Part shown: positions 1 to 41,690 of the stretch, in pieces
Layout: each line of letters begins with the position of its first letter
Position numbering within the stretch: position 1 is the stretch's first letter
NCBI RefSeq assembly: GCF_030013205.1
Contig: NZ_CP122648.1
Reading direction: 5' to 3' (one strand)
Source: Escherichia coli
GTDB taxonomy: Bacteria > Pseudomonadota > Gammaproteobacteria > Enterobacterales > Enterobacteriaceae
Length of the DNA stretch: 64,000 nucleotides
Translations under genes and position numbers: made by a program
Notes under the pieces: generated by a model
What the model was told of the DNA's origin: nothing
The model's database searches: none
What the model saw: only the letters and a program-made list of their open reading frames with translations

Positions 1-1
1 C

Positions 2-493
2 TTCAGTATCACTGACAATCTGATGCTGGAGCCACAACTGCAGTACACCTGGCAGGGACTTTCCCTGGATGACGGCCAGGATAACGCCGGTTATGTGAAG
101 TTCGGGCATGGCAGTGCACAACATGTGCGTGCCGGCTTCCGTCTGGGCAGCCACAACGATATGACCTTTGGTGAAGGCACCTCATCCCGTGACACCCTGC
201 GCGACAGTGCAAAACACAGTGTGCGTGAACTGCCGGTGAACTGGTGGGTACAGCCTTCTGTTATCCGCACCTTCAGTTCCCGGGGTGACATGAGCATGGG
301 GACAGCCGCTGCCGGCAGTAACATGACGTTATCACCGTCACAGAATGGCACGTCACTGGACCTGCAGGCCGGACTGGAAGCCCGTGTCCGGGAAAATATC
401 ACCCTGGGGGTACAGGCCGGTTATGCCCACAGCGTCAGCGGCAGCAGTGCTGAAGGTTATAACGGTCAGGCCACGCTGAATGTGACTTTCTGA
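2..493 (+). CDS. Autotransporter C-terminal (beta-barrel) end, antigen 43/Flu-like; 5' part lies before the window
   Basis: ORF open to window edge, ends ...GQATLNVTF with stop at 491-493; terminal aromatic residue typical of outer-membrane barrels; resembles Ag43 C-terminus from memory. Confidence 0.6.
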   Translation, partial: FSITDNLMLEPQLQYTWQGLSLDDGQDNAGYVKFGHGSAQHVRAGFRLGSHNDMTFGEGTSSRDTLRDSAKHSVRELPVNWWVQPSVIRTFSSRGDMSMGTAAAGSNMTLSPSQNGTSLDLQAGLEARVRENITLGVQAGYAHSVSGSSAEGYNGQATLNVTF

Positions 494-515
494 TAATCAG
501 GTCACTCCCCTTCAG

Positions 516-545
516 GCCCCGGCCATCATGACCGGGGCTTTTTAC
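516..545 (+). terminator. Rho-independent terminator after autotransporter gene
   Basis: GC hairpin ccccgg/ccgggg followed by T-run. Confidence 0.5.
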
Positions 546-753
546 TTTCAGGGAGCAACAGATATGCCTGGTTGTACATCACGTTTATTGCCCGAAGGCC
601 CTTTTGCTGCCAAATGGCATCTGAATCGATCACAGTTTGACCGGTTATTACCCGATCCCGATGGGGTTATTGGGTGATCTCCTTCCATAAAAATACGCAG
701 CTCGCCAGTGAAGGGCTTCTCAGACAATAAACGTCATTCATTTCATCGGTCAG

Positions 754-786
754 GCCGCGTCTTCTCCGGGAGACGCGGCTTTTTCA
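754..786 (+). terminator. Second hairpin plus T-run upstream of DUF932-like gene
   Basis: gccgcgtct / agacgcggc stem followed by ttttt. Confidence 0.4.
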
Positions 787-820
787 TTTATACCGCTAAC
801 TCATTCATAAGGAGCAAATC

Positions 821-1639
821 ATGCGATTAGCAAGTCGTTTTGGTCATGTAAACCAGATACGCCGTGACCGTCCGCTGACACATGAAGAACTGATGCACTA
901 TGTACCCAGTATTTTTGGGGAAGATCGGCATACCTCCCGCAGTGAACGCTATGCGTACATTCCCACCATCACCGTACTGGAAAGCCTGCAGCGGGAAGGT
1001 TTTCAGCCATTCTTCGCCTGCCAGACCCGCGTGCGCGATCCGGGCCGCCGGGGATACACCAGACACATGCTGCGTCTGCGGCGGGCCGGGGAGATAACCG
1101 GACAACATGTCCCTGAAATTATTCTGCTCAACTCCCATGACGGTACCTCCAGCTACCAGATGCTGCCGGGTTACTTCAGATTCGTCTGCCAGAACGGCTG
1201 CGTCTGCGGTCAGTCTCTGGGGGAAGTCCGTGTGCCCCACCGGGGAAATGTGGTGGACAGAGTCATTGAAGGGGCTTACGAGGTAGTGGGCGTTTTTGAC
1301 CGGATTGAGGAAAAGCGTGATGCCATGCAGTCTCTGGTCCTGCCGCCACCGGCACGTCAGGCGCTGGCACAGGCGGCACTGACTTACCGTTATGGTGACG
1401 AACATCAGCCGGTCACCACCGCCGACATTCTGACGCCACGACGCAGGGAGGATTACGGTAAGGACCTGTGGAGTGCATATCAGACCATCCAGGAGAATAT
1501 GCTGAAAGGCGGGATTTCCGGTCGCAGCGCTAAAGGAAAACGTATCCACACCCGTGCCATTCACAGCATCGACACGGACATTAGGCTCAACCGCGCATTG
1601 TGGGTGATGGCAGAAACGCTGCTGGAGAGCCTGCGCTGA
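821..1639 (+). CDS. DUF932-family island protein (YfjQ/YafZ-like)
   Basis: 272-aa ORF with RBS aaggag; translation resembles K-12 cryptic-prophage YfjQ/YafZ proteins (recall). Confidence 0.65.
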   Translation: MRLASRFGHVNQIRRDRPLTHEELMHYVPSIFGEDRHTSRSERYAYIPTITVLESLQREGFQPFFACQTRVRDPGRRGYTRHMLRLRRAGEITGQHVPEIILLNSHDGTSSYQMLPGYFRFVCQNGCVCGQSLGEVRVPHRGNVVDRVIEGAYEVVGVFDRIEEKRDAMQSLVLPPPARQALAQAALTYRYGDEHQPVTTADILTPRRREDYGKDLWSAYQTIQENMLKGGISGRSAKGKRIHTRAIHSIDTDIRLNRALWVMAETLLESLR

Positions 1640-1730
1640 TGCTGTTTCCCTGAAAGTGCAGCCCTGACTCACGTCTGTACCAGTCCCCAGGCATTCTTCC
1701 ATTCATTTGCTTTTTATAAGGAATAATCTC

Positions 1731-2216
1731 ATGACAACCTCTTCGCATAATTCCACCACACCTTCTGTTTCCGTAACCGCTGCATCAGGGAATAACCAGT
1801 CTCAACTGGTTGCCACTCCCGTCCCTGATGAACAGCGCATCAGTTTCTGGCCGCAGCACTTTGGCCTCATTCCACAGTGGGTGACCCTGGAGCCCCGTAT
1901 CTTCGGCTGGATGGACCGTCTGTGTGAAGACTACTGCGGTGGTATCTGGAATCTGTATACCCTGAACAACGGCGGGGCATTTATGGCACCCGAACCGGAT
2001 GACGATGATGACGAAACATGGGTACTGTTCAATGCCATGAACGGTAACCGCGCTGAAATGAGCCCGGAAGCCGCCGGTATTGCCGCCTGTCTGATGACGT
2101 ACAGCCATCATGCCTGTCGTACGGAGTGTTATGCCATGACGGTCCATTATTACCGGCTGCGGGATTACGCCCTGCAGCATCCTGAATGCAGCGCCATTAT
2201 GCGCATCATCGACTGA
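1731..2216 (+). CDS. Antirestriction protein, KlcA/ArdB family (YfjX/YafX-like)
   Basis: ORF 1707-2216; start chosen at MTTSSH; acidic stretch DDDDDE; position before radC-like gene as in CP4-type islands. Confidence 0.6.
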   Translation: MTTSSHNSTTPSVSVTAASGNNQSQLVATPVPDEQRISFWPQHFGLIPQWVTLEPRIFGWMDRLCEDYCGGIWNLYTLNNGGAFMAPEPDDDDDETWVLFNAMNGNRAEMSPEAAGIAACLMTYSHHACRTECYAMTVHYYRLRDYALQHPECSAIMRIID

Positions 2217-2230
2217 GCCGGAGAAGCACA

Positions 2231-2707
2231 ATGCAACAACTTTCCTTTCTGCCCGGAGAGATGACAACCAGAGAGCGCAGTCTCATTCTGCGGGCCCTGA
2301 AAACCCTGGACCGCCATCTTCATGAACCCGGTGTGGCCTTCACCTCCACGCATGCGGCACGGGAATGGCTGATTCTGAACATGGCAGGACTGGAGCGGGA
2401 AGAGTTCCGGGTACTGTATCTGAACAACCAGAATCAGCTGATTGCGGGTGAAACCCTCTTCACCGGCACCATCAACCGCACGGAGGTCCATCCCCGGGAA
2501 GTGATTAAACGTGCCCTGTACCACAATGCCGCTGCCGTGATACTGGCACACAACCACCCGTCCGGTGAAGTCACTCCCAGTAAGGCAGACCGGCTTATTA
2601 CGGAACGTCTGGTACAGGCACTGGCCATGGTGGATATCCGGGTGCCGGACCATCTGATAGTCGGTGGCAGCCAGGTTTTCTCCTTTGCCGAACACGGTCT
2701 GCTTTAA
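2231..2707 (+). CDS. RadC-like JAB-domain protein (YeeS/YkfG/YfjY family)
   Basis: Motif HNHPSG...PS..D (JAMM-like) in translation; start at MQQLSFLPGE. Confidence 0.7.
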   Translation: MQQLSFLPGEMTTRERSLILRALKTLDRHLHEPGVAFTSTHAAREWLILNMAGLEREEFRVLYLNNQNQLIAGETLFTGTINRTEVHPREVIKRALYHNAAAVILAHNHPSGEVTPSKADRLITERLVQALAMVDIRVPDHLIVGGSQVFSFAEHGLL

Positions 2708-2775
2708 CCCGTCACCGTCACAACCACATCACACCTGTTTTCACTTTTATCTTCTGTCTTCAGAGGTATCCCACC

Positions 2776-2997
2776 ATGAAAATTATCACCCGTGGTGAAG
2801 CCATGCGCATTCACCGTCAGCATCCGGCATCCCGTCTTTTTCCGTTCTGCACCGGTAAGTACCGCTGGCACGGCAGCACTGAGGCATATACCGGTCGTGA
2901 AGTGCAGGATATTCCCGGTGTGCTGGCCGTGTTTGCTGAACGCCGTAAGGACAGTTTTGGCCCGTATGTCCGGCTGATGAGTGTAACCCTGAACTGA
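2776..2997 (+). CDS. YeeT/YkfH/YpjJ-family small protein (DUF987)
   Basis: 73-aa ORF MKIITRGEAMRIH... near-identical in my recollection to K-12 YeeT. Confidence 0.7.
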   Translation: MKIITRGEAMRIHRQHPASRLFPFCTGKYRWHGSTEAYTGREVQDIPGVLAVFAERRKDSFGPYVRLMSVTLN

Positions 2998-3015
2998 GTC
3001 AGGAAGGGAATTCTG

Positions 3016-3660
3016 ATGAGCAGAATTATCACCACCACCGTGTATACGCTGGATGAACTTTCCTGCCCGGCACGGGAAAAAGCCCGCGACGGGTACCGTC
3101 AGCATCATGCTGACAGCAACTGGTATGAAAACGTGTATGAAGACTTCAGGGAGGTCTGTGACATTTTCGGGATTAACCTCCGCCAGCGTGTTATCCGGCT
3201 CAGCAGTGGCAGGTTTATGGAAGAGCCGTGCATCTGGTTCAGCGGATTCTGCAGCCAGGGGGACGGAGCCTGTTTTGAAGGACGCTGGCACTGGCAGTCA
3301 GCAACAGCCAGGAGAATCCGGGAGTATGCCCCACAGGACCGTGAAATTCATCGTATCGCGGATGCCCTGCAGTCGGTACAGAAGCGTAACTTCTGGCAGT
3401 TACAGGCTGAAATCAGTCACCGGGGACGTTACTGCCATCCGTACAGCATGGATATCACCGTCACCCGGAACAGTCCGACTGGTCAGGTAATGACAACCGA
3501 TGCGGAAGCCGCTGTCAGCGAAGCCCTGCGCGACCTGGCCTTCTGGTTGTACCGTCAGCTGGAAAACGAGTACGACTGGCTGACCTCAGACGCCGCTGTG
3601 GATGAGGCCCTTCTCATCAACGAATACACCTTCACCGAAGCCGGTCTGCGCGCCGGCTGA
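3016..3660 (+). CDS. Hypothetical Cys/His-rich 214-aa protein, unassigned
   Basis: Clean ORF with RBS aggaagg 8 nt upstream of ATG; sits between yeeT-like and cbeA-like genes where K-12 clusters have no gene (recall). Confidence 0.5.
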   Translation: MSRIITTTVYTLDELSCPAREKARDGYRQHHADSNWYENVYEDFREVCDIFGINLRQRVIRLSSGRFMEEPCIWFSGFCSQGDGACFEGRWHWQSATARRIREYAPQDREIHRIADALQSVQKRNFWQLQAEISHRGRYCHPYSMDITVTRNSPTGQVMTTDAEAAVSEALRDLAFWLYRQLENEYDWLTSDAAVDEALLINEYTFTEAGLRAG

Positions 3661-3709
3661 CTCGTCATCGTTAAACTATCATTCACCGATTTTCTGTGAG
3701 GATTTTATC

Positions 3710-4078
3710 GTGTCAGACACACTCCATGAAACAAATTATCCCGACGACAACAACGACCGCTCCTGGTGGGGGCTACCCTGCACCGTGACGCCCTGTTTCA
3801 GGGCACGTCTGGTGCAGGAAGGGAACCGGTTGCATTACCTTGCAGACCGTGCCGGTATCAGAGGCCGGTTCAGCGACGCGGATGCGTACCATCTGGACCA
3901 GGCCTTTCCGCTGCTGATGAAACAACTGGAACTCATGCTCACCAGCGGTGAACTCAGTCCCCGCCATCAGCATACCGTCACGCTGTATGCAAAAGGGCTG
4001 ACCTGCGAAGCCGACACCCTCGGCAGTTGTGGCTACGTTTATATGGCTGTTTATCCGACGCCCGAAACGAAAAAGTAA
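3710..4078 (+). CDS. Type IV antitoxin, CbeA/YeeU/YfjZ/YafW family
   Basis: 122 codons from GTG 3710; translation closely matches K-12 CbeA (WWGLPCTVTPCF..., LYAKGLTC...) from memory. Confidence 0.75.
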   Translation: MSDTLHETNYPDDNNDRSWWGLPCTVTPCFRARLVQEGNRLHYLADRAGIRGRFSDADAYHLDQAFPLLMKQLELMLTSGELSPRHQHTVTLYAKGLTCEADTLGSCGYVYMAVYPTPETKK

Positions 4079-4167
4079 ATAATCAGAATAACCTTCTGCT
4101 CCGGCCAGGTGCTTTCACCACACCACTTTCCCATTTCTCATCTCTGCATATCAGGAAAATCTTCAGT

Positions 4168-4545
4168 ATGAAAACATTACCTGTATTACCCGGGCAGGCG
4201 GCCGGTTTACGCCCGTCTCCGGTTGAAATCTGGCAGACACTGCTTACCAGACTGCTGGACCAGCATTACGGCCTCACGCTGAATGACACGCCGTTTGCCG
4301 ATGAACGTGTGATTGAGCAGCATATTGAGGCAGGCATATCACTGTGTGATGCGGTGAACTTTCTCGTGGAAAAATACGCGCTGGTGCGTACCGACAAGCC
4401 GGGATTCAACGCCTGTACCCACTCTCAGTTAATAAACAGCATCGATATCCTCCGGGCCCGCCGGGCAACAGGCCTGATGACCCGCGACAATTACAGAACG
4501 GTGAACAATATCACCCGGGGTAAACATTCGGAGGCGAAACGATGA
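4168..4545 (+). CDS. Type IV toxin, CbtA/YeeV/YkfI/YpjF family (cytoskeleton inhibitor)
   Basis: MKTLPVLPGQAA... matches K-12 CbtA N-terminus and length (about 125 aa); directly downstream of the antitoxin. Confidence 0.75.
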   Translation: MKTLPVLPGQAAGLRPSPVEIWQTLLTRLLDQHYGLTLNDTPFADERVIEQHIEAGISLCDAVNFLVEKYALVRTDKPGFNACTHSQLINSIDILRARRATGLMTRDNYRTVNNITRGKHSEAKR

Positions 4546-5030
4546 AACTGACCCTGACACTGGAAGCCGACAGTATTAATGTGCAGGCACTGAACATGGA
4601 GCGAATTGTTGTTGACGTCGATGGTATTGAGCTCGCTGAACTGATTAATAAGGTCGCTGAAAACGGTTATTCACTCCGCGTGGTGGATGCTCCCGAACAG
4701 CAGACAACGGATTCTCCACCATCGTTTACGGCCCTTACCGGCATACGCTGCAGTACCGCACATATCACGGAAAAGGATAACGCCTGGCTGTACTCGCTGT
4801 CACACCAGACCAGTGACTTCGGTGAATCAGAATGGATTCATTTCACAGGTAGCGGATATCTGTTACGTACCGATGCGTGGTCATATCCGGTTCTGCGGCT
4901 TAAACGCCTGGGGCTGTCAAAAACGTTCCGTCGTCTGGTTGTCACACTCATCCAACGTTATGGCGTCAGTCTCATTCATCTGGATGCCAGCGCTGAATGT
5001 CTGCCGGACCTGCCCACTTTCGACTGGTAA
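4542..5030 (+). CDS. YeeW-like protein downstream of the toxin
   Basis: 162-aa ORF whose ATG overlaps the cbtA stop (ATGA); same position as yeeW in CP4-44-type clusters. Confidence 0.5.
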   Translation: MKLTLTLEADSINVQALNMERIVVDVDGIELAELINKVAENGYSLRVVDAPEQQTTDSPPSFTALTGIRCSTAHITEKDNAWLYSLSHQTSDFGESEWIHFTGSGYLLRTDAWSYPVLRLKRLGLSKTFRRLVVTLIQRYGVSLIHLDASAECLPDLPTFDW

Positions 5031-5041
5031 CCAGGAACAAC

Positions 5042-5239
5042 ATGAAATCATTAACCACAGAAACCGCACTGGATATTCTGATTGCGTGGCTACAAGACAA
5101 TATCGACTGCGAATCGGGAATTATCTTTGACAACGATGAGGATAGAACGGATTCGGCAGCACTGTTGCCCTGTATCGAACAGGCCAGAGAGGATGTCCGT
5201 ACCCTGCGTCAGCTGCAGTTTCTGCAACAGAACCGGTGA
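5042..5239 (+). CDS. Small acidic hypothetical protein (65 aa)
   Basis: ATG at 5042 preceded by aggaac; followed by a terminator. Confidence 0.35.
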   Translation: MKSLTTETALDILIAWLQDNIDCESGIIFDNDEDRTDSAALLPCIEQAREDVRTLRQLQFLQQNR

Positions 5240-5267
5240 GTCTTACTCACCAGACTTCATTCCACTG

Positions 5268-5300
5268 ACGCCAGCCTGAATACGGCTGGCGTTTTCGTTT
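5268..5300 (+). terminator. Rho-independent terminator
   Basis: acgccagcc / ggctggcgt hairpin followed by ttttcgttt. Confidence 0.5.
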
Positions 5301-5323
5301 ATCTGCAAAAAGGAATATCGATT

Positions 5324-6166
5324 ATGTCTGAAATCACAGCCTCTCGTCCGGAAGTGGTCAACGGGCATACGGACGTTATCTGCTCAACCAGTATCCGCCA
5401 CATTCTGGCTGTACGAAAGAGTACATTGCTGCAAATCGACACACTTATCCGGCAACTGGCTGAAATATCAGCAATGACAGAAAGTATTGGAGGTAAAACG
5501 GCTCTGGACTGGGCCATGAAACAGGATTTTCGCTGCGGTTGCTGGCTGATGGAGAAACCGGAAACCGCAATGAAAGCCATCACACGCAATCTTGATCGCG
5601 AACTCTGGCGTGATCTGATGCAACGTTCCGGGTTGCTGAGTCTGATGGATGCGCAGACCCGGGACACATGGTACAGGTCACTGGAATATGATAATTTTCC
5701 GGAAATCAGCGAAGCGAACATTCTGAGCACATTTGAACAACTGCACCAGAACAAAGATGAAGTGTTTGAACGGGGAGTGATCAACGTCTTCAAAGGGCTG
5801 AGCTGGGATTACAAAACCAACTCACCCTGTAAATTTGGCAGTAAAATTATCGTCAACAATCTGGTGAGGTGGGACCAGTGGGGATTTCATCTTATCAGTG
5901 GAATGCAGGCAGATCGCCTGGCTGACCTGGAAAGAATGTTGCATCTGCTCAGCGGTAAACCGATCCCCGACAACCGGGGGAATATCACCATTAATCTGGA
6001 TGACCACATACAGTCCGTTCAGGGTAAAGGACGCTATGAAGATGAGATGTTCATCATTAAATACTTTAAGAAGGGATCTGCACACATCACTTTCAAAAGG
6101 CTGGAGCTGATTGACAGAATTAACGATATAATAGCTAGGCACTTTCCTTCTGTGCTCTCAGCCTGA
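5324..6166 (+). CDS. Hypothetical 280-aa island protein (possibly DUF4942-like)
   Basis: ORF with RBS aaaggaa; last gene before the att repeat; family assignment is from memory only. Confidence 0.45.
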   Translation: MSEITASRPEVVNGHTDVICSTSIRHILAVRKSTLLQIDTLIRQLAEISAMTESIGGKTALDWAMKQDFRCGCWLMEKPETAMKAITRNLDRELWRDLMQRSGLLSLMDAQTRDTWYRSLEYDNFPEISEANILSTFEQLHQNKDEVFERGVINVFKGLSWDYKTNSPCKFGSKIIVNNLVRWDQWGFHLISGMQADRLADLERMLHLLSGKPIPDNRGNITINLDDHIQSVQGKGRYEDEMFIIKYFKKGSAHITFKRLELIDRINDIIARHFPSVLSA

Positions 6167-6276
6167 CCCCGAGTTTGATTCCCTTTCGATATCAAAAGGG
6201 ACTGCGGGTACAAAAGAGGGTACATCTTTCACCAAACCAAACAAAATAAACTAATATCAACATGATAGAAGCATTC

Positions 6277-6298
6277 TTCGATTCCGAGTCCGGCACCA
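6277..6298 (+). repeat. 3' fragment of tRNA-Phe (ttcgattccgagtccggcacca): island att direct repeat, not a full tRNA gene
   Basis: Matches T-arm/acceptor end of E. coli tRNA-Phe; no tRNA body upstream; accessory genes stop here and the K-12-like cadC upstream region follows. Confidence 0.7.
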
Positions 6299-6309
6299 AA
6301 TTCATATAA

Positions 6310-13896: not shown

Positions 13897-14132
13897 CTGT
13901 CGTAAAAACAATTGGTTATGAATAAATTAACTTTCAGTTTATCACACTAGTAAATTGAGATTAATAAGTCATTTAAACCATTTTTATGGTTATTTATTAG
14001 TGATATCAACTTGAGGTAAGCGTTAGTTTCGATAAGATAAACTGAGTTATTAATAGTCGAGGCAGATAATACAGTGTACCGATCTGTCTCTTTATCTACG
14101 CTAAATTGAAAGCTGGATTTAGAGGAACCAAA

Positions 14133-15650
14133 ATGTCTGAACAAGAAACACGGGGAGCCAATGAGGCTATTGATTTTAACGATGAACTGAGAAATCGCCG
14201 CGAAAAACTGGCGGCACTGCGTCAGCAAGGTGTGGCGTTTCCTAATGATTTTCGCCGCGACCATACCTCTGACCAGTTGCACGAAGAGTTTGATGCGAAG
14301 GATAACCAGGAACTGGAATCCTTAAACATTGAAGTCTCGGTTGCTGGCCGAATGATGACCCGTCGTATCATGGGGAAAGCCTCCTTTGTAACGTTGCAGG
14401 ATGTCGGTGGCCGTATTCAACTGTACGTTGCAAGAGATAGCCTGCCAGAAGGTGTTTATAACGATCAGTTTAAAAAATGGGATCTGGGTGACATTATCGG
14501 TGCCCGCGGTACGCTGTTTAAGACGCAAACCGGTGAGCTTTCCATTCACTGTACTGAGCTGCGCCTGCTGACTAAAGCACTACGTCCTTTACCAGATAAA
14601 TTCCATGGTCTGCAGGATCAGGAAGTCCGTTATCGTCAACGTTATCTGGACCTCATCGCTAACGATAAATCCCGTCAAACGTTTGTTGTCCGTTCAAAAA
14701 TTCTGGCCGCTATCCGTCAGTTCATGGTCGCGCGCGGCTTTATGGAAGTAGAAACCCCGATGATGCAGGTAATTCCAGGTGGGGCATCTGCTCGCCCGTT
14801 TATTACCCATCATAACGCTCTGGATTTAGATATGTACCTGCGTATCGCGCCGGAGCTGTATCTGAAACGTCTGGTTGTAGGCGGTTTTGAACGGGTATTC
14901 GAAATCAACCGTAACTTCCGTAATGAAGGTATTTCTGTTCGCCATAATCCTGAGTTCACAATGATGGAACTCTACATGGCGTATGCGGATTACCACGATT
15001 TGATTGAACTGACGGAGTCCCTGTTCCGCACCCTGGCACAAGAAGTTCTGGGTACCACTAAAGTCACTTATGGCGAGCATGTGTTTGATTTCGGCAAACC
15101 GTTTGAAAAACTCACCATGCGCGAAGCAATCAAAAAATATCGTCCAGAAACCGATATGGCCGACCTGGATAATTTTGATGCTGCTAAAGCATTAGCTGAA
15201 TCTATCGGAATTACGGTAGAGAAAAGCTGGGGGCTGGGACGTATTGTCACAGAGATCTTTGATGAAGTGGCAGAAGCACATCTGATTCAGCCAACCTTTA
15301 TTACGGAATATCCGGCAGAAGTGTCCCCGCTGGCGCGCCGTAATGATGTTAACCCGGAAATCACCGACCGTTTTGAATTCTTCATCGGTGGTCGTGAAAT
15401 CGGTAATGGTTTTAGCGAATTAAACGACGCAGAAGATCAGGCTGAACGTTTCCAGGAACAGGTTAACGCTAAAGCTGCAGGTGACGACGAAGCCATGTTC
15501 TATGACGAAGATTACGTGACTGCGCTGGAATATGGTCTGCCGCCAACCGCTGGTCTGGGTATTGGTATCGACCGAATGATTATGCTGTTTACAAACAGTC
15601 ATACTATTCGCGACGTTATTCTCTTCCCGGCGATGCGCCCACAGAAATAA
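14133..15650 (+). CDS. lysU: Lysyl-tRNA synthetase, inducible
   Basis: 505 aa from [12 protein letters not shown]; class II aaRS motifs. Confidence 0.9.
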
Positions 15651-15664
15651 ATTTCACTTAAATG

Positions 15665-15693
15665 AACGAAGCAGTCAGGCGACTGCTTCGTTC
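15665..15693. terminator. Hairpin between convergent lysU and ghoT
   Basis: gaacgaagcagtc / gactgcttcgttc 13-bp stem. Confidence 0.45.
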
Positions 15694-15768
15694 GTCGTTC
15701 CGCAAATCCAGTTATGAGGAGAGACGCTTCGTTTCAAGATAACCAGCGGGTCCACTCAACTACAGCTC

Positions 15769-15942
15769 CTAAAAGAGAGAAAAAAGTAATGCCACAGGCA
15801 GACTCATTGGCCAGGTTATTCCGACCAGGAATGCACTAAGTAAACGAATATGTGTTTTCTCATGTGAGATAAACCAGATAATGACAAAGGATATGTTCAC
15901 ACCAATCACATAAAAAATTAATATTTTAGAGAATAGTGCCAT
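15769..15942 (-). CDS. ghoT: GhoT, type V toxin membrane peptide
   Basis: Not in ORF track (57 aa); reverse complement translates to MALFSKILIFYVIGVNISFVIIWFISHEKTHIRLLSAFLVGITWPMSLPVALLFSLF. Confidence 0.8.
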   Translation of the reverse strand: MALFSKILIFYVIGVNISFVIIWFISHEKTHIRLLSAFLVGITWPMSLPVALLFSLF

Positions 15943-15969
15943 TTTTTATGTTCTTCTTATCCTTCCTGG

Positions 15970-16266
15970 CTACTTGTAAAACTGACGGAAATAATCATCA
16001 ACTGTCATAATGTTGAGGTCAAAGTCAATATCCGGTAAGTCTAAGCATTTAAGCCTGATTAAATCTTCGATTTCACTTGCGGCTAACGATGTCGTTATTG
16101 CGAAGGAGTTTTCATTCAATTGTCGTGGTATCCCATATTCATCAGCCACGATAGAGGAGAAATTCATATCATACATCAATGATCTTAACCTTAAGAACAC
16201 TGAGGAATAAGATGATGGATAATCAAAAGAAACAACATAAGTATTGAACTTGTTTTTACCTTCCAT
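15970..16266 (-). CDS. ghoS: GhoS, type V antitoxin endoribonuclease
   Basis: 98 aa MEGKNKFNTYVVSFDYPSSY...; directly upstream of ghoT on the same strand. Confidence 0.85.
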   Translation of the reverse strand: MEGKNKFNTYVVSFDYPSSYSSVFLRLRSLMYDMNFSSIVADEYGIPRQLNENSFAITTSLAASEIEDLIRLKCLDLPDIDFDLNIMTVDDYFRQFYK

Positions 16267-16492
16267 AATATGACTCCTATCAATATTGAACGCTCTGGGG
16301 ACGCAAAACTTATTAACCCCGATCGATGATTTTCATATAGGAGATATTCTTTTTTTTGCTCAGTAAAGGGGATGACTTGGGACAAAAAAACGCTCTCTCT
16401 GCCCATTCTTTGTGCATCCCCCTACCCTTCAGATGCTCTCCTGCATCACACCGCGGAGAGCATGAAAAATATCGTGACTCTGTACTCTCCCA

Positions 16493-16765
16493 TCAACTGC
16501 GAATATCATCATACTCCCGCGTTTTATCAAATTCGTGTTTCGCAAATGGGCATAGTGGGATAATTTTTCGTTTTTCCCGACGCATTTTTTCCACGACTTT
16601 CGCAACCAGCTGTTTACCAATCCCCTGCCCTTTCAGGCTTTCATCGACATCGGTATGTTCGATAATCGCTAAATTCTCTCCGGTCGGCACAAAGACAATT
16701 TCAGCGATTTGCTTGCCTTGTTCGTCATTAATGTAAAATTTATTGTGGCCTTCGCGTATTTCCAT
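16493..16765 (-). CDS. yjdJ: GNAT-family acetyltransferase
   Basis: 90 aa with Q/RxxGxG/A acetyl-CoA motif (GQGIGKQL). Confidence 0.8.
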
Positions 16766-16776
16766 TTTACCCTCGC

Positions 16777-17007
16777 TTATTTATGACGGTATTTCAGCGC
16801 GCCGCTCGGGCACGTATCAATCACTTTAACCACAGTGGTGACGTCAACTTCATCCGGCATGATCCACGGCTTTCGTTTGAGATTAAATAACTTGCCGTTG
16901 CCACGTACGCAATTGCCAGAATGCTGACATATCGCAGTGTTGAACCAGACATCGATCTTTTCGCCGGTATAGCAGCGATAACCACCGTCCAGTAGATCCT
17001 GATCCAT
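16777..17007 (-). CDS. yjdI: Small Cys-rich protein YjdI
   Basis: 76 aa from [13 protein letters not shown]; ORF track gives a longer upstream start. Confidence 0.7.
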
Positions 17008-17186
17008 GACCTTCCCCCTCTCATCAGTATGGTTTTCGCAATAAGCATAGCCCGGAATCTTCATACCGCACCGGCAGTTTCAGTTTCCAGAGCCTCTTCC
17101 CCTATATAGCCAATCATTCTTACTCCCTTTGAATTACCCGCCTCATCAGAGATAATGCTTAAGAAATTTGTCACACAAGGAAGCTG

Positions 17187-20104: not shown

Positions 20105-21445
20105 ATGTTATTTACTATCCAACTTATCATAATACTGATATGTCTGTTTTATGGTGCCAGAAAGGGTGGTATCGCGCTGGGTTTATTAGGCGGTATCGGT
20201 CTGGTCATTCTGGTCTTCGTCTTCCACCTTCAGCCAGGTAAACCACCGGTTGATGTCATGCTGGTTATCATTGCGGTAGTGGCGGCATCGGCGACCTTGC
20301 AAGCTTCGGGCGGTCTTGATGTCATGCTGCAAATTGCCGAGAAGCTGCTGCGCCGCAACCCGAAATATGTCTCAATTGTCGCGCCGTTTGTGACCTGTAC
20401 GCTGACCATTCTTTGCGGTACGGGTCATGTGGTTTACACCATTCTGCCGATCATCTACGACGTCGCCATTAAGAACAACATCCGTCCGGAACGCCCGATG
20501 GCGGCAAGTTCTATCGGTGCACAGATGGGGATTATCGCCAGTCCGGTGTCGGTTGCAGTCGTGTCTCTGGTTGCGATGCTGGGTAATGTCACCTTTGATG
20601 GTCGCCATCTTGAGTTCCTCGACCTGCTGGCAATCACCATTCCATCGACGTTAATCGGTATCCTGGCGATCGGTATCTTCAGCTGGTTCCGCGGTAAAGA
20701 TCTGGATAAAGACGAAGAGTTCCAGAAATTCATCTCCGTACCGGAAAACCGTGAGTATGTTTACGGTGATACTGCGACGCTGCTGGATAAAAAACTGCCG
20801 AAAAGCAACTGGCTGGCAATGTGGATCTTCCTCGGGGCAATCGCTGTAGTCGCCCTTCTTGGTGCTGATTCGGACCTGCGTCCATCCTTCGGTGGCAAAC
20901 CGCTGTCGATGGTACTGGTTATTCAGATGTTTATGCTGCTGACCGGGGCGCTGATTATTATCCTGACCAAAACCAATCCCGCGTCTATCTCAAAAAACGA
21001 AGTCTTCCGTTCCGGTATGATCGCCATCGTGGCGGTGTACGGTATCGCATGGATGGCAGAAACCATGTTCGGTGCGCATATGTCTGAAATTCAGGGCGTA
21101 CTGGGCGAAATGGTGAAAGAGTATCCGTGGGCCTATGCCATTGTTCTGCTGCTGGTTTCCAAGTTTGTAAACTCTCAGGCTGCGGCGCTGGCGGCGATTG
21201 TTCCGGTCGCGCTGGCGATCGGCGTTGATCCGGCATACATCGTGGCTTCAGCACCGGCTTGCTACGGTTATTACATCCTGCCGACTTATCCGAGCGATCT
21301 GGCAGCGATTCAGTTTGACCGTTCCGGCACCACCCACATCGGTCGCTTCGTCATCAACCACAGCTTTATTCTGCCGGGGTTGATTGGTGTGAGCGTATCG
21401 TGCGTCTTCGGCTGGATCTTCGCCGCGATGTACGGGTTCTTATAA
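20105..21445 (+). CDS. dcuB: Anaerobic C4-dicarboxylate (fumarate/succinate) antiporter
   Basis: 446 aa polytopic membrane protein. Confidence 0.95.
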
Positions 21446-23291: not shown

Positions 23292-23942
23292 ATGACCCGC
23301 ACACTCAAGCCGTTAATTCTTAACACCGGCGCACTGGCGCTAACGTTAATCCTGATTTATACCGGCATTTCGGCCCGTGACAAACTCACCTGGCTGATGG
23401 AAGTGACACCGGTGATTATTGTCGTGCCGCTACTGCTTGCCACCGCTAAACGTTATCCGTTAACGCCGCTGCTCTATACGCTCATTTTCTTTCACGCCAT
23501 CATCCTGATGGTCGGCGGACAATACACCTACGCGAAAGTCCCCGTTGGTTTTGAGGTGCAGGAATGGCTGGGGTTGAGCCGTAATCCGTATGACAAACTG
23601 GGGCATTTTTTCCAGGGGCTGGTGCCTGCACTGGTGGCACGAGAGATCCTTGTGCGCGGGATGTACGTTCGCGGACATAAGATGGTGGTGTTTCTGGTCT
23701 GCTGCGTGGCGCTGGCGATAAGCGCGATGTATGAATTAATCGAGTGGTGGGCGGCGCTGGCAATGGGCCAGGGAGCGGATGATTTTCTCGGCACCCAGGG
23801 CGACCAGTGGGACACGCAATCCGATATGTTCTGCGCGCTGCTTGGCGCATTAACGACGGTGATATTCCTCGCTCGCTTTCATTGCCGCCAGCTACGGCGC
23901 TTTGGCTTAATCACCAGAGCGCCGGAAGCGATTACCCCTTAA
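23292..23942 (+). CDS. yjdF: Inner membrane protein YjdF, with a C-terminal tail that may differ from K-12
   Basis: 216-codon ORF; I recall K-12 YjdF as 209 aa; stop codon overlaps melA stop. Confidence 0.8.
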   Translation: MTRTLKPLILNTGALALTLILIYTGISARDKLTWLMEVTPVIIVVPLLLATAKRYPLTPLLYTLIFFHAIILMVGGQYTYAKVPVGFEVQEWLGLSRNPYDKLGHFFQGLVPALVAREILVRGMYVRGHKMVVFLVCCVALAISAMYELIEWWAALAMGQGADDFLGTQGDQWDTQSDMFCALLGALTTVIFLARFHCRQLRRFGLITRAPEAITP

Positions 23943-33943: not shown

Positions 33944-35035
33944 ATGCGTTTTCTGCGCCGACCAATATCGCTGCGCCAACGGCTGATATTGACCATTGGG
34001 GCCATTTTGTTGGTGTTTGAGCTGATCAGCGTCTTCTGGCTATGGCATGAAAGTACCGAGCAGATTCAGCTGTTTGAGCAGGCGCTACGCGACAATCGCA
34101 ACAACGATCGCCACATCATGCGTGAGATCCGCGAGGCGGTCGCCAGCCTGATCGTCCCCGGCGTCTTTATGGTCAGCCTGACGCTATTTATCTGCTATCA
34201 GGCGGTACGCCGCATCACCCGCCCGCTGGCGGAGCTGCAAAAAGAGCTGGAAGCGCGCACCGCCGACAACTTAACGCCCATTGCCATTCACAGCGCCACC
34301 CTCGAAATCGAAGCGGTGGTTTCGGCGTTAAACGATCTGGTCAGTCGCCTGACCAACACGCTGGATAACGAAAGGTTGTTTACCGCTGACGTCGCGCACG
34401 AACTGCGAACGCCACTGGCGGGGGTGCGTTTGCATCTGGAACTGCTGGCGAAAACGCATCACATTGATGTAGCACCGTTAGTGGCACGGCTTGATCAGAT
34501 GATGGAGAGCGTCTCCCAGCTGCTGCAACTGGCGCGTGCCGGACAGTCATTTTCTTCCGGTAATTATCAACATGTAAAACTGCTGGAAGATGTCATTCTC
34601 CCCTCGTATGACGAACTCAGTACCATGCTCGACCAGCGACAGCAAACCCTGCTATTGCCAGAGAGCGCCGCCGACATCACCGTTCAGGGTGATGCAACCC
34701 TGCTGCGGATGTTATTGCGAAACCTGGTAGAAAACGCCCATCGTTACAGCCCGCAAGGCAGCAACATTATGATTAAGCTGCAAGAAGATGGCGGAGCGGT
34801 CATGGCTGTTGAAGATGAAGGACCGGGTATTGATGAGAGTAAATGCGGGGAGTTGAGTAAAGCATTTGTACGTATGGACAGCCGTTATGGCGGGATTGGT
34901 CTGGGGTTAAGTATTGTCAGCCGCATTACACAGTTGCATCACGGGCAGTTTTTCCTGCAAAACCGGCAAGAGACTTCCGGCACGCGGGCCTGGGTACGGC
35001 TGAAGAAAGATCAGTACGTGGCAAACCAGATATAA
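33944..35035 (+). CDS. basS: Sensor kinase BasS (PmrB)
   Basis: About 363 aa; H-box ELRTPLA; ATG at 33944 (ORF track starts at TTG 33935). Confidence 0.9.
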   Translation: MRFLRRPISLRQRLILTIGAILLVFELISVFWLWHESTEQIQLFEQALRDNRNNDRHIMREIREAVASLIVPGVFMVSLTLFICYQAVRRITRPLAELQKELEARTADNLTPIAIHSATLEIEAVVSALNDLVSRLTNTLDNERLFTADVAHELRTPLAGVRLHLELLAKTHHIDVAPLVARLDQMMESVSQLLQLARAGQSFSSGNYQHVKLLEDVILPSYDELSTMLDQRQQTLLLPESAADITVQGDATLLRMLLRNLVENAHRYSPQGSNIMIKLQEDGGAVMAVEDEGPGIDESKCGELSKAFVRMDSRYGGIGLGLSIVSRITQLHHGQFFLQNRQETSGTRAWVRLKKDQYVANQI

Positions 35036-35100
35036 AGAAAGCTGCTGACCACCAGCACGCTGAACACGGTAGTTAAACTTTCATAAACACGGTTTTTCAT
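35011..35100 (-). CDS. pmrR: PmrR small membrane peptide (29 aa)
   Basis: Not in ORF track; reverse complement gives MKNRVYESLTTVFSVLVVSSFLYIWFATY; 3' end overlaps basS 3' end on the opposite strand. Confidence 0.75.
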   Translation of the reverse strand: MKNRVYESLTTVFSVLVVSSFLYIWFATY

Positions 35101-35103
35101 TGC

Positions 35104-35130
35104 ACTCTCCTCCGTTAACCTGGAGGAGAG
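35104..35130. terminator. Hairpin between convergent basS and proP
   Basis: ctctcctcc / ggaggagag stem. Confidence 0.45.
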
Positions 35131-35211
35131 TATGCGCGTCAGAGATTAAGTGAACCTTAAGACTTCAATTGGCCTGATAAGACAGCGTCACATCAGGCCA
35201 TCCGTTTCAGC

Positions 35212-40109: not shown

Positions 40110-40164
40110 GGTGATGCTGCCAACTTACTGATTTAGTGTATGATGGTGTTTTTGAGGTGCTCCA

Positions 40165-40440
40165 GTGGCTTCTGTTTCTATCAGCTGTCCCTCCTGTTCA
40201 GCTACTGACGGGGTGGTGCGTAACGGCAAAAGCACCGCCGGACATCAGCGCTATCTCTGCTCTCACTGCCGTAAAACATGGCAACTACAGTTCACTTACG
40301 CCGCCTCTCAGCCCGGTACGCACCAGAAAATCATTGATATGGCCATGAATGGCGTCGGATGTCGCGCCAGTGCACGCATTATTGGCGTTGGCCTCAACAC
40401 GATTTTCCGCCACTTAAAAAACTCAGGCCGCAGTCGGTAA
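40165..40440 (+). CDS. insA: IS1 InsA
   Basis: 91 aa [23 protein letters not shown]... zinc-finger/HTH repressor. Confidence 0.95.
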
Positions 40441-40862
40441 CCTCGCGCATACAACCGGGCAGTGATGTGATTGTCTGCGCTGAAATGGACGAACAGTGGG
40501 GCTACGTCGGTGCTAAATCACGTCAGCGCTGGCTGTTTTACGCGTATGACAGGATGCGGAGGACGGTTGTGGCGCACGTCTTCGGTGAACGCACTCTGGC
40601 CACACTGGAGCGTCTTCTGAGCCTGCTGTCGGCCTTTGAGGTCGTGGTATGGATGACGGATGGCTGGCCGCTGTATGAATCACGCCTGAAGGGAAAGCTG
40701 CACGTTATCAGCAAGCGTTATACTCAGCGCATTGAGCGGCATAACCTGAATCTGAGACAACATCTGGCAAGGCTGGGACGGAAGTCACTGTCGTTCTCAA
40801 AATCGGTGGAGCTGCATGACAAGGTCATCGGGCATTATCTGAACATAAAACACTATCAGTAA
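40359..40862 (+). CDS. insB: IS1 insB frame; transposase InsAB' is made by -1 frameshift from insA
   Basis: 167-codon frame overlapping insA 3' end; slippery A6C at 40416-40422. Confidence 0.9.
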
Positions 40863-40877
40863 GTTGGAGTCATTACC

Positions 40878-41609: not shown

Positions 41610-41690
41610 GTAAGCCGGATAAGGCGCTCGCGCCGCATCCGGCAACGATGCCGACTGCCTGATGCGACGCTGACCGCGTCTTATCAGGCT
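41610..41690. repeat. REP/BIME-type extragenic palindromes
   Basis: gccggataaggcgctcgcgccgcatccggc and gcctgatgcgacgctgaccgcgtcttatcaggc. Confidence 0.7.

Follow-up and report, generated by a model that had tools for sequence, protein, structure and literature searches.

The ghoS–ghoT Toxin–Antitoxin Genes in 64,000 Nucleotides of Escherichia coli DNA

Organization of the Locus

The DNA considered here, referred to below as the window, is a stretch of 64,000 nucleotides from Escherichia coli. Positions 15769–16266 of its minus strand are occupied by two consecutive genes, ghoS and ghoT, these positions marking exactly the outer limits of the pair: 15769 is the final base of the ghoT stop codon, and 16266 the base with which the ghoS start codon opens. 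Open reading frames (ORFs) were listed with a floor of 20 aa, which places ghoT directly downstream of ghoS on the same strand, and the minus strand was read directly over positions 15400–16700. The features of the locus are as follows.

15970–16266, minus strand: ghoS coding sequence, 98 aa and a TAG stop (ATG...TAG ORF); antitoxin, predicted Cas2-like endoribonuclease
15769–15942, minus strand: ghoT coding sequence, 57 aa and a TAG stop (ATG...TAG ORF); small hydrophobic protein, predicted membrane toxin
15943–15969, minus strand: ghoS–ghoT spacer of 27 nt, CCAGGAAGGATAAGAAGAACATAAAAA, read from the sequence
15943–15969, minus strand: the same spacer, purine-rich (GGAAGGATAAGAAG), as presumed ribosome-binding region of ghoT
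16274–16278, minus strand: AGGAG, putative Shine-Dalgarno sequence of ghoS, 7 nt ahead of the ATG, read from the sequence
16267–16492, minus strand: yjdJ–ghoS intergenic region of 226 nt, presumed location of the ghoST promoter
15664–15693, no strand assigned: hairpin between ghoT and lysU, which converge here, obtained by RNA folding; its perfectly paired stem of 13 bp encloses a loop of 4 nt (GAACGAAGCAGTC-GCCT-GACTGCTTCGTTC)

The arrangement is bicistronic: the antitoxin gene precedes the toxin gene on the same strand, and a short spacer separates them; co-transcription is predicted. The original prediction had described a 57-codon toxin gene that translates cleanly downstream of ghoS on the minus strand, and the ATG...TAG ORF at 15769–15942 is exactly such a frame. 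It had also held that the toxin was missed by the ORF track. This is correct for the track itself, since the default floor of the ORF tool is 60 aa and the 57-aa ghoT was dropped for this reason, but the public annotation has no gap. In the nearest genome, RefSeq lists a 'type V toxin-antitoxin system toxin GhoT' and an 'endoribonuclease antitoxin GhoS' at the same coordinates. A floor of 60 codons hides known small toxin genes, and short ORFs beside recognised antitoxins therefore merit inspection.

The G+C content is about 35% in ghoS and in ghoT each, as opposed to 51% in the whole window, and window positions 15750–16450 form a local AT-rich trough around the two genes. This AT-rich islet suggests an old horizontal acquisition of ghoST.

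The gene order, dcuR-dcuS followed by yjdI-yjdJ-ghoS-ghoT, convergent with lysU-dtpC-cadABC, is that of K-12. Several details of the neighbouring genes depend on how they are called. The mechanical ORF of lysU (14106–15650) starts with TTG at 14106 and the annotated start is an ATG at 14133; the orthologue of this gene in strain ETEC4067 bears the PGAP label 'lysS'. The mechanical ORF of yjdI (16777–17064) has 95 aa, and the annotated gene 76 aa (16777–17007). The dcuB gene (20105–21445) is an intact ORF of 446 aa in the window and is annotated as frameshifted in ETEC4067, the frameshift being the sole indel between the window and that genome over 40.5 kb.

Identity of the Two Proteins

Protein alignment with K-12 MG1655 gave full identity for both products: 57 of 57 residues for GhoT (YjdO, b4559) and 98 of 98 residues for GhoS (YjdK, b4128). 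This is the comparison by which the original prediction of a ghoS–ghoT type V toxin–antitoxin pair was to be checked. The mismatch to GhoT that would have spoken against it was not found, and the gene order, strand relation, spacer, context and RefSeq labels agree with it. The sequence of PDB entry 2LLZ is likewise 100% identical to GhoS; this solved structure was deposited as "uncharacterized protein yjdK".

Family membership was judged by Pfam's own gathering thresholds. The small protein belongs to Toxin_GhoT_OrtT (PF10753; E 8.9e-26, 90.4 bits against a cutoff of 22.1) and the larger one to GhoS (PF11080; E 6.1e-41, 138.8 bits against a cutoff of 21). Neither GhoS nor GhoT was matched in a search of the NCBIfam HMMs; this silence is not counted against membership, because RefSeq evidently names both proteins by other rules. 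The PADLOC defence models did not match ghoS–ghoT either, so that nothing supports listing the two genes among the catalogued anti-phage systems.

At the DNA level the locus is 98.3% identical to K-12 over the 842 nt from yjdJ to lysU. Of the 14 nucleotide differences, 10 are intergenic (6 upstream of the pair and 4 downstream of it), and the other 4 are synonymous changes within ghoS; the spacer and ghoT show none. Besides the proteins, the 27-nt spacer and the ghoT DNA, the two strains share the neighbours yjdI, yjdJ and lysU, the distribution of GCU triplets over the two genes, and residues R28 of GhoS and F38 of GhoT. They differ in the changes just listed and in strain background.

The features that define ghoST at the level of sequence are all present here, and nothing was found to speak against the identification; the caveats given below concern the mechanism. 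The locus can thus be identified, almost with certainty, as ghoST, the chromosomal E. coli operon that founded type V among the toxin–antitoxin systems. Judged by its sequence, the pair is already known and characterised, as both proteins are the K-12 versions. A textbook E. coli locus that is publicly annotated and protein-identical to the studied K-12 pair has little discovery value.

Conservation and Distribution

Ten E. coli lineages, including K-12, O157:H7, O111 and ST131 EC958, were aligned over the locus. Variable columns make up 2.3% of ghoT, 3.0% of ghoS and 10–11% of the flanking intergenic DNA, i.e., the coding regions are about four times less variable than their intergenic flanks. 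All changes in ghoT are synonymous; the GhoT protein is invariant and carries one RefSeq accession throughout. GhoS has two single-residue variants (N85S and K6R), and the 27-nt spacer has one variable position. The most variable part of the locus is the yjdJ–ghoS intergenic region, with 11% variable columns. The low variability of the coding sequences against that of their flanks indicates purifying selection on both ghoS and ghoT.

A search of 5426 complete E. coli genomes found the ghoST locus in 5342 of them (about 98%); porcine ETEC isolates match it best, at 100%. Some genomes lack ghoST altogether, and strain ET734 keeps only 47 nt of the 842-nt query.

The coding reality of both ORFs is confirmed by the Pfam E-values, the identity to K-12 and the low variability relative to the flanks, all of which lie far beyond chance. 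For the 57-codon frame taken separately, one could suppose that the AT-rich sequence following ghoS is open by accident and holds no gene, as stop-free stretches of such size are less rare at 35% G+C and many short ORFs of 20–70 aa overlap the region on both strands. The chance of this being so is vanishingly small: the Toxin_GhoT_OrtT score, the complete match to GhoT of K-12, a protein studied by experiment, and the invariance of the protein across the ten lineages, next to flanks four-fold more variable, rule it out, and the gene is annotated in RefSeq. The small protein could also be taken for the orphan paralogue OrtT (YdcX), in which case there would be no pair. OrtT has 57 aa as well, belongs to PF10753, has two predicted transmembrane segments and the conserved F38, and is 63% identical to GhoT; no antitoxin gene lies next to it, GhoS does not neutralise it, and its mRNA has two GCU sites (PMC4344625). 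The gene described here has no GCU site, ghoS lies directly upstream of it, the yjdJ/lysU context is that of ghoST, and its product matches GhoT at 57 of 57 residues. This identity, the neighbouring ghoS and the GCU pattern together rule out OrtT, the probability of which is equally negligible.

Functional Features and Proposed Mode of Action

GhoT is strongly hydrophobic (GRAVY +1.5), with hydrophobic stretches at approximately residues 4–26 and 34–57 around a polar SHEKTHIR loop. Both GhoT and OrtT have been described with two transmembrane segments, in agreement with this profile (PMC4344625). F38 is present in GhoT, and its replacement (F38R) abolishes toxicity (PMC4344625). In GhoS, R28 is present and L25 and M31 are in register with the published numbering of PMC4010927, where R28 is reported as the most important residue for RNase activity.

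On the model of K-12, a single minus-strand transcript would cover ghoS and, after it, ghoT. GhoS, a stable endoribonuclease of 98 residues with a Cas2-like fold, would cleave the ghoT mRNA, so that little GhoT is made; neutralisation would thus proceed without binding of the toxin protein. GhoT, with its 57 residues, could insert into the inner membrane when made, leading to membrane damage, a drop in ATP and slower growth. Under stress, as proposed for K-12, the type II toxin MqsR could cut at GCU sites, destroying the ghoS part of the message and sparing the GCU-free ghoT, which would release toxin synthesis.

For K-12, cleavage of ghoT mRNA by GhoS is reported with reference to Wang et al. 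2012, and the MqsR-dependent enrichment of ghoT mRNA with reference to Wang et al. 2013. Type V systems are defined by an antitoxin that cleaves the toxin mRNA instead of binding the toxin, according to PMC4344625, PMC4010927, PMC4905990 and PMC5086665. GhoT production results in membrane damage, lowered ATP and growth arrest, as stated in PMC4344625, which cites Cheng et al. 2014. For K-12, PMC4905990 and PMC10305079 state that MqsR preferentially cleaves the ghoS part of the transcript, which enriches ghoT mRNA. The biochemical evidence for the mechanism stems essentially from one group of laboratories. In the present strain, cleavage of ghoT mRNA by GhoS would be expected, since the two proteins and the ghoT message are the same as in K-12; the RNase activity, the membrane damage and the MqsR cascade are all carried over from the K-12 literature by identity and should be regarded as predicted.

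Two other systems resemble the pair in part. GhoS has been called a structural homologue of Cas2 of CRISPR-Cas with five conserved catalytic residues (PMC4010927), a likeness that here rests on the identity of GhoS to PDB 2LLZ. In contrast to Cas2, GhoS stands alone beside a toxin gene, and the window has no CRISPR array or cas genes nearby.

Type I toxins such as TisB and Hok damage the inner membrane and are controlled at the level of the toxin mRNA. GhoT resembles them in its small size and hydrophobic nature, in the reported damage to the inner membrane and drop in ATP, and in the control through the toxin mRNA (PMC4344625, introduction). The antitoxin of type I systems is an antisense RNA, whereas that of ghoST is a protein RNase, which is the defining feature of type V.

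Transcription Signals

A scan of positions 15600–16800 for sigma-70-like promoters gave five sites, against 3.4 ± 1.9 in shuffled sequences, and none of them lies in the yjdJ–ghoS intergenic region. This region folds into hairpins just past the yjdJ stop codon. At the other end of the pair, the stretch 15651–15768, folded as minus-strand RNA, has a z-score of −2.97 as a whole. The hairpin at 15664–15693 is probably the shared transcript end of ghoT and lysU, its role as a terminator being inferred. A terminator scan of 15600–16800 called nothing; the hairpin goes uncalled because no U-tract follows the stem.

Since GhoT is small, hydrophobic and membrane-active like the type I toxins, an antisense RNA could also, or instead, keep ghoT repressed, as happens in type I systems, and two weak promoter-like matches do lie on the opposite strand (15896–15925 and 15982–16011). 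Both are only 9/12 matches, however, the total count of sites is within chance, Rfam families are absent at the ghoST locus, and no antisense RNA for ghoT is described in the literature consulted. Antisense control is therefore very improbable, and this reading was dropped on the grounds of the chance-level promoter matches and the absence of Rfam families.

GCU Sites and the Relation to MqsR

GCT triplets occur three times in ghoS (nt 121, 213 and 221) and are absent from ghoT. According to the literature, ghoT is among the few E. coli mRNAs that lack the MqsR site GCU (PMC4905990, PMC4344625), and the pattern of three sites in ghoS to none in ghoT is kept in 10 of the 10 lineages sampled. 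The probability of zero GCT in ghoT depends on the null model used.

Mononucleotide shuffling: 0.098
Recoding with the codon usage of nine core genes of the window: 0.027
Redistribution of the codons present in ghoT over synonymous positions: 0.74

On its own, the lack of GCU in ghoT is thus weak evidence of selection, because it is mostly explained by AT-rich codon choice.

The mqsRA genes, the only activator proposed for ghoST, were found in 2298 of the 5426 complete E. coli genomes (42%), against the 5342 that carry ghoST, and they are absent from the 64,000-nt window. In the AIEC strain NRG857c, ghoST is present and mqsRA absent, and ghoT is nevertheless regulated under acid and bile stress (PMC7232551). 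MqsR cannot be the general trigger of the system, because mqsRA is far rarer than ghoST and a published strain has ghoST without mqsRA. The much wider spread of ghoST limits the generality of the published cascade from MqsR to GhoT.

The genes being ghoS and ghoT, their control could accordingly be independent of MqsR and exerted by another RNase, or at the transcriptional or translational level, or the pair could be effectively always off. The unequal distribution of mqsRA and ghoST, the observations on NRG857c, and the base and codon composition that largely accounts for the lack of GCU in ghoT argue for such control. The constancy of the GCU pattern in all ten lineages sampled argues against it, as does the MqsR-dependent enrichment of ghoT mRNA reported for K-12 in PMC4905990 and PMC10305079. 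On balance, MqsR-independent control is the one live alternative, with somewhat less than an even chance, and it touches the regulation of the pair, not its identity. The related view that something other than MqsR sets GhoT free in the majority of strains, this one perhaps among them, or that the pair has a role unconnected with the cascade, falls only just short of even. If true, it would concern the biology of a known system and would add no new element; it is hinted at in PMC7232551.

Other Features of the Window

The whole window was mapped onto K-12 and onto ETEC4067. The DNA of window positions 1–6299 is absent from K-12 at this place. Positions 1–6276 constitute the tail of a genomic island, which ends at a 23-nt 3' fragment of the tRNA-Phe gene pheU (6277–6299); the window contains no intact tRNA. 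Among the island genes are the terminal part of an Ag43-type autotransporter gene and genes for a DUF932 protein, an antirestriction protein, RadC, and DUF987, DUF5983, DUF957 and DUF4942 proteins. The island also carries a second toxin–antitoxin pair at 3602–4545, of type IV (CbeA/CbtA), with both genes intact: the CbeA/YeeU antitoxin ORF at 3602–4078 (Pfam E 2.9e-53) and the CbtA toxin at 4168–4545 (E 8.3e-57).

ETEC4067, elsewhere nearly identical to the window, carries positions 2258–3871 (1614 bp) in exactly the opposite orientation, with 100% identity. The segment contains RadC, DUF987, a 214-aa ORF without known identity and the 5' part of cbeA, so that in ETEC4067 the antitoxin gene cbeA is interrupted by the inversion and cbtA remains whole. 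Its flanks have no inverted repeat of at least 20 nt. The difference in orientation may reflect either a genuine inversion or the way the genomes were assembled.

Compared with K-12, melB is deleted, K-12 positions 4343267–4344931 being replaced by about 20 nt at window positions 23918–23939. The yjdF ORF (23292–23942) now runs into the end of melA and has 216 aa (209 aa in K-12). Immediately ahead of rdcA/crfC, an IS1 element of 768 bp (40110–40877) has been inserted together with a target duplication of 9 bp; K-12 lacks this element. Two RNAs scored above the Rfam gathering score, namely the sRNA STnc630 at 35004–35169 on the minus strand (181 bits), which overlaps pmrR and the end of pmrB, and naRNA4/CssrE at 41613–41690 on the plus strand (87 bits) in the yjdM–yjdN repeat region. 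The latter region comprises about 420 bp more DNA in K-12.
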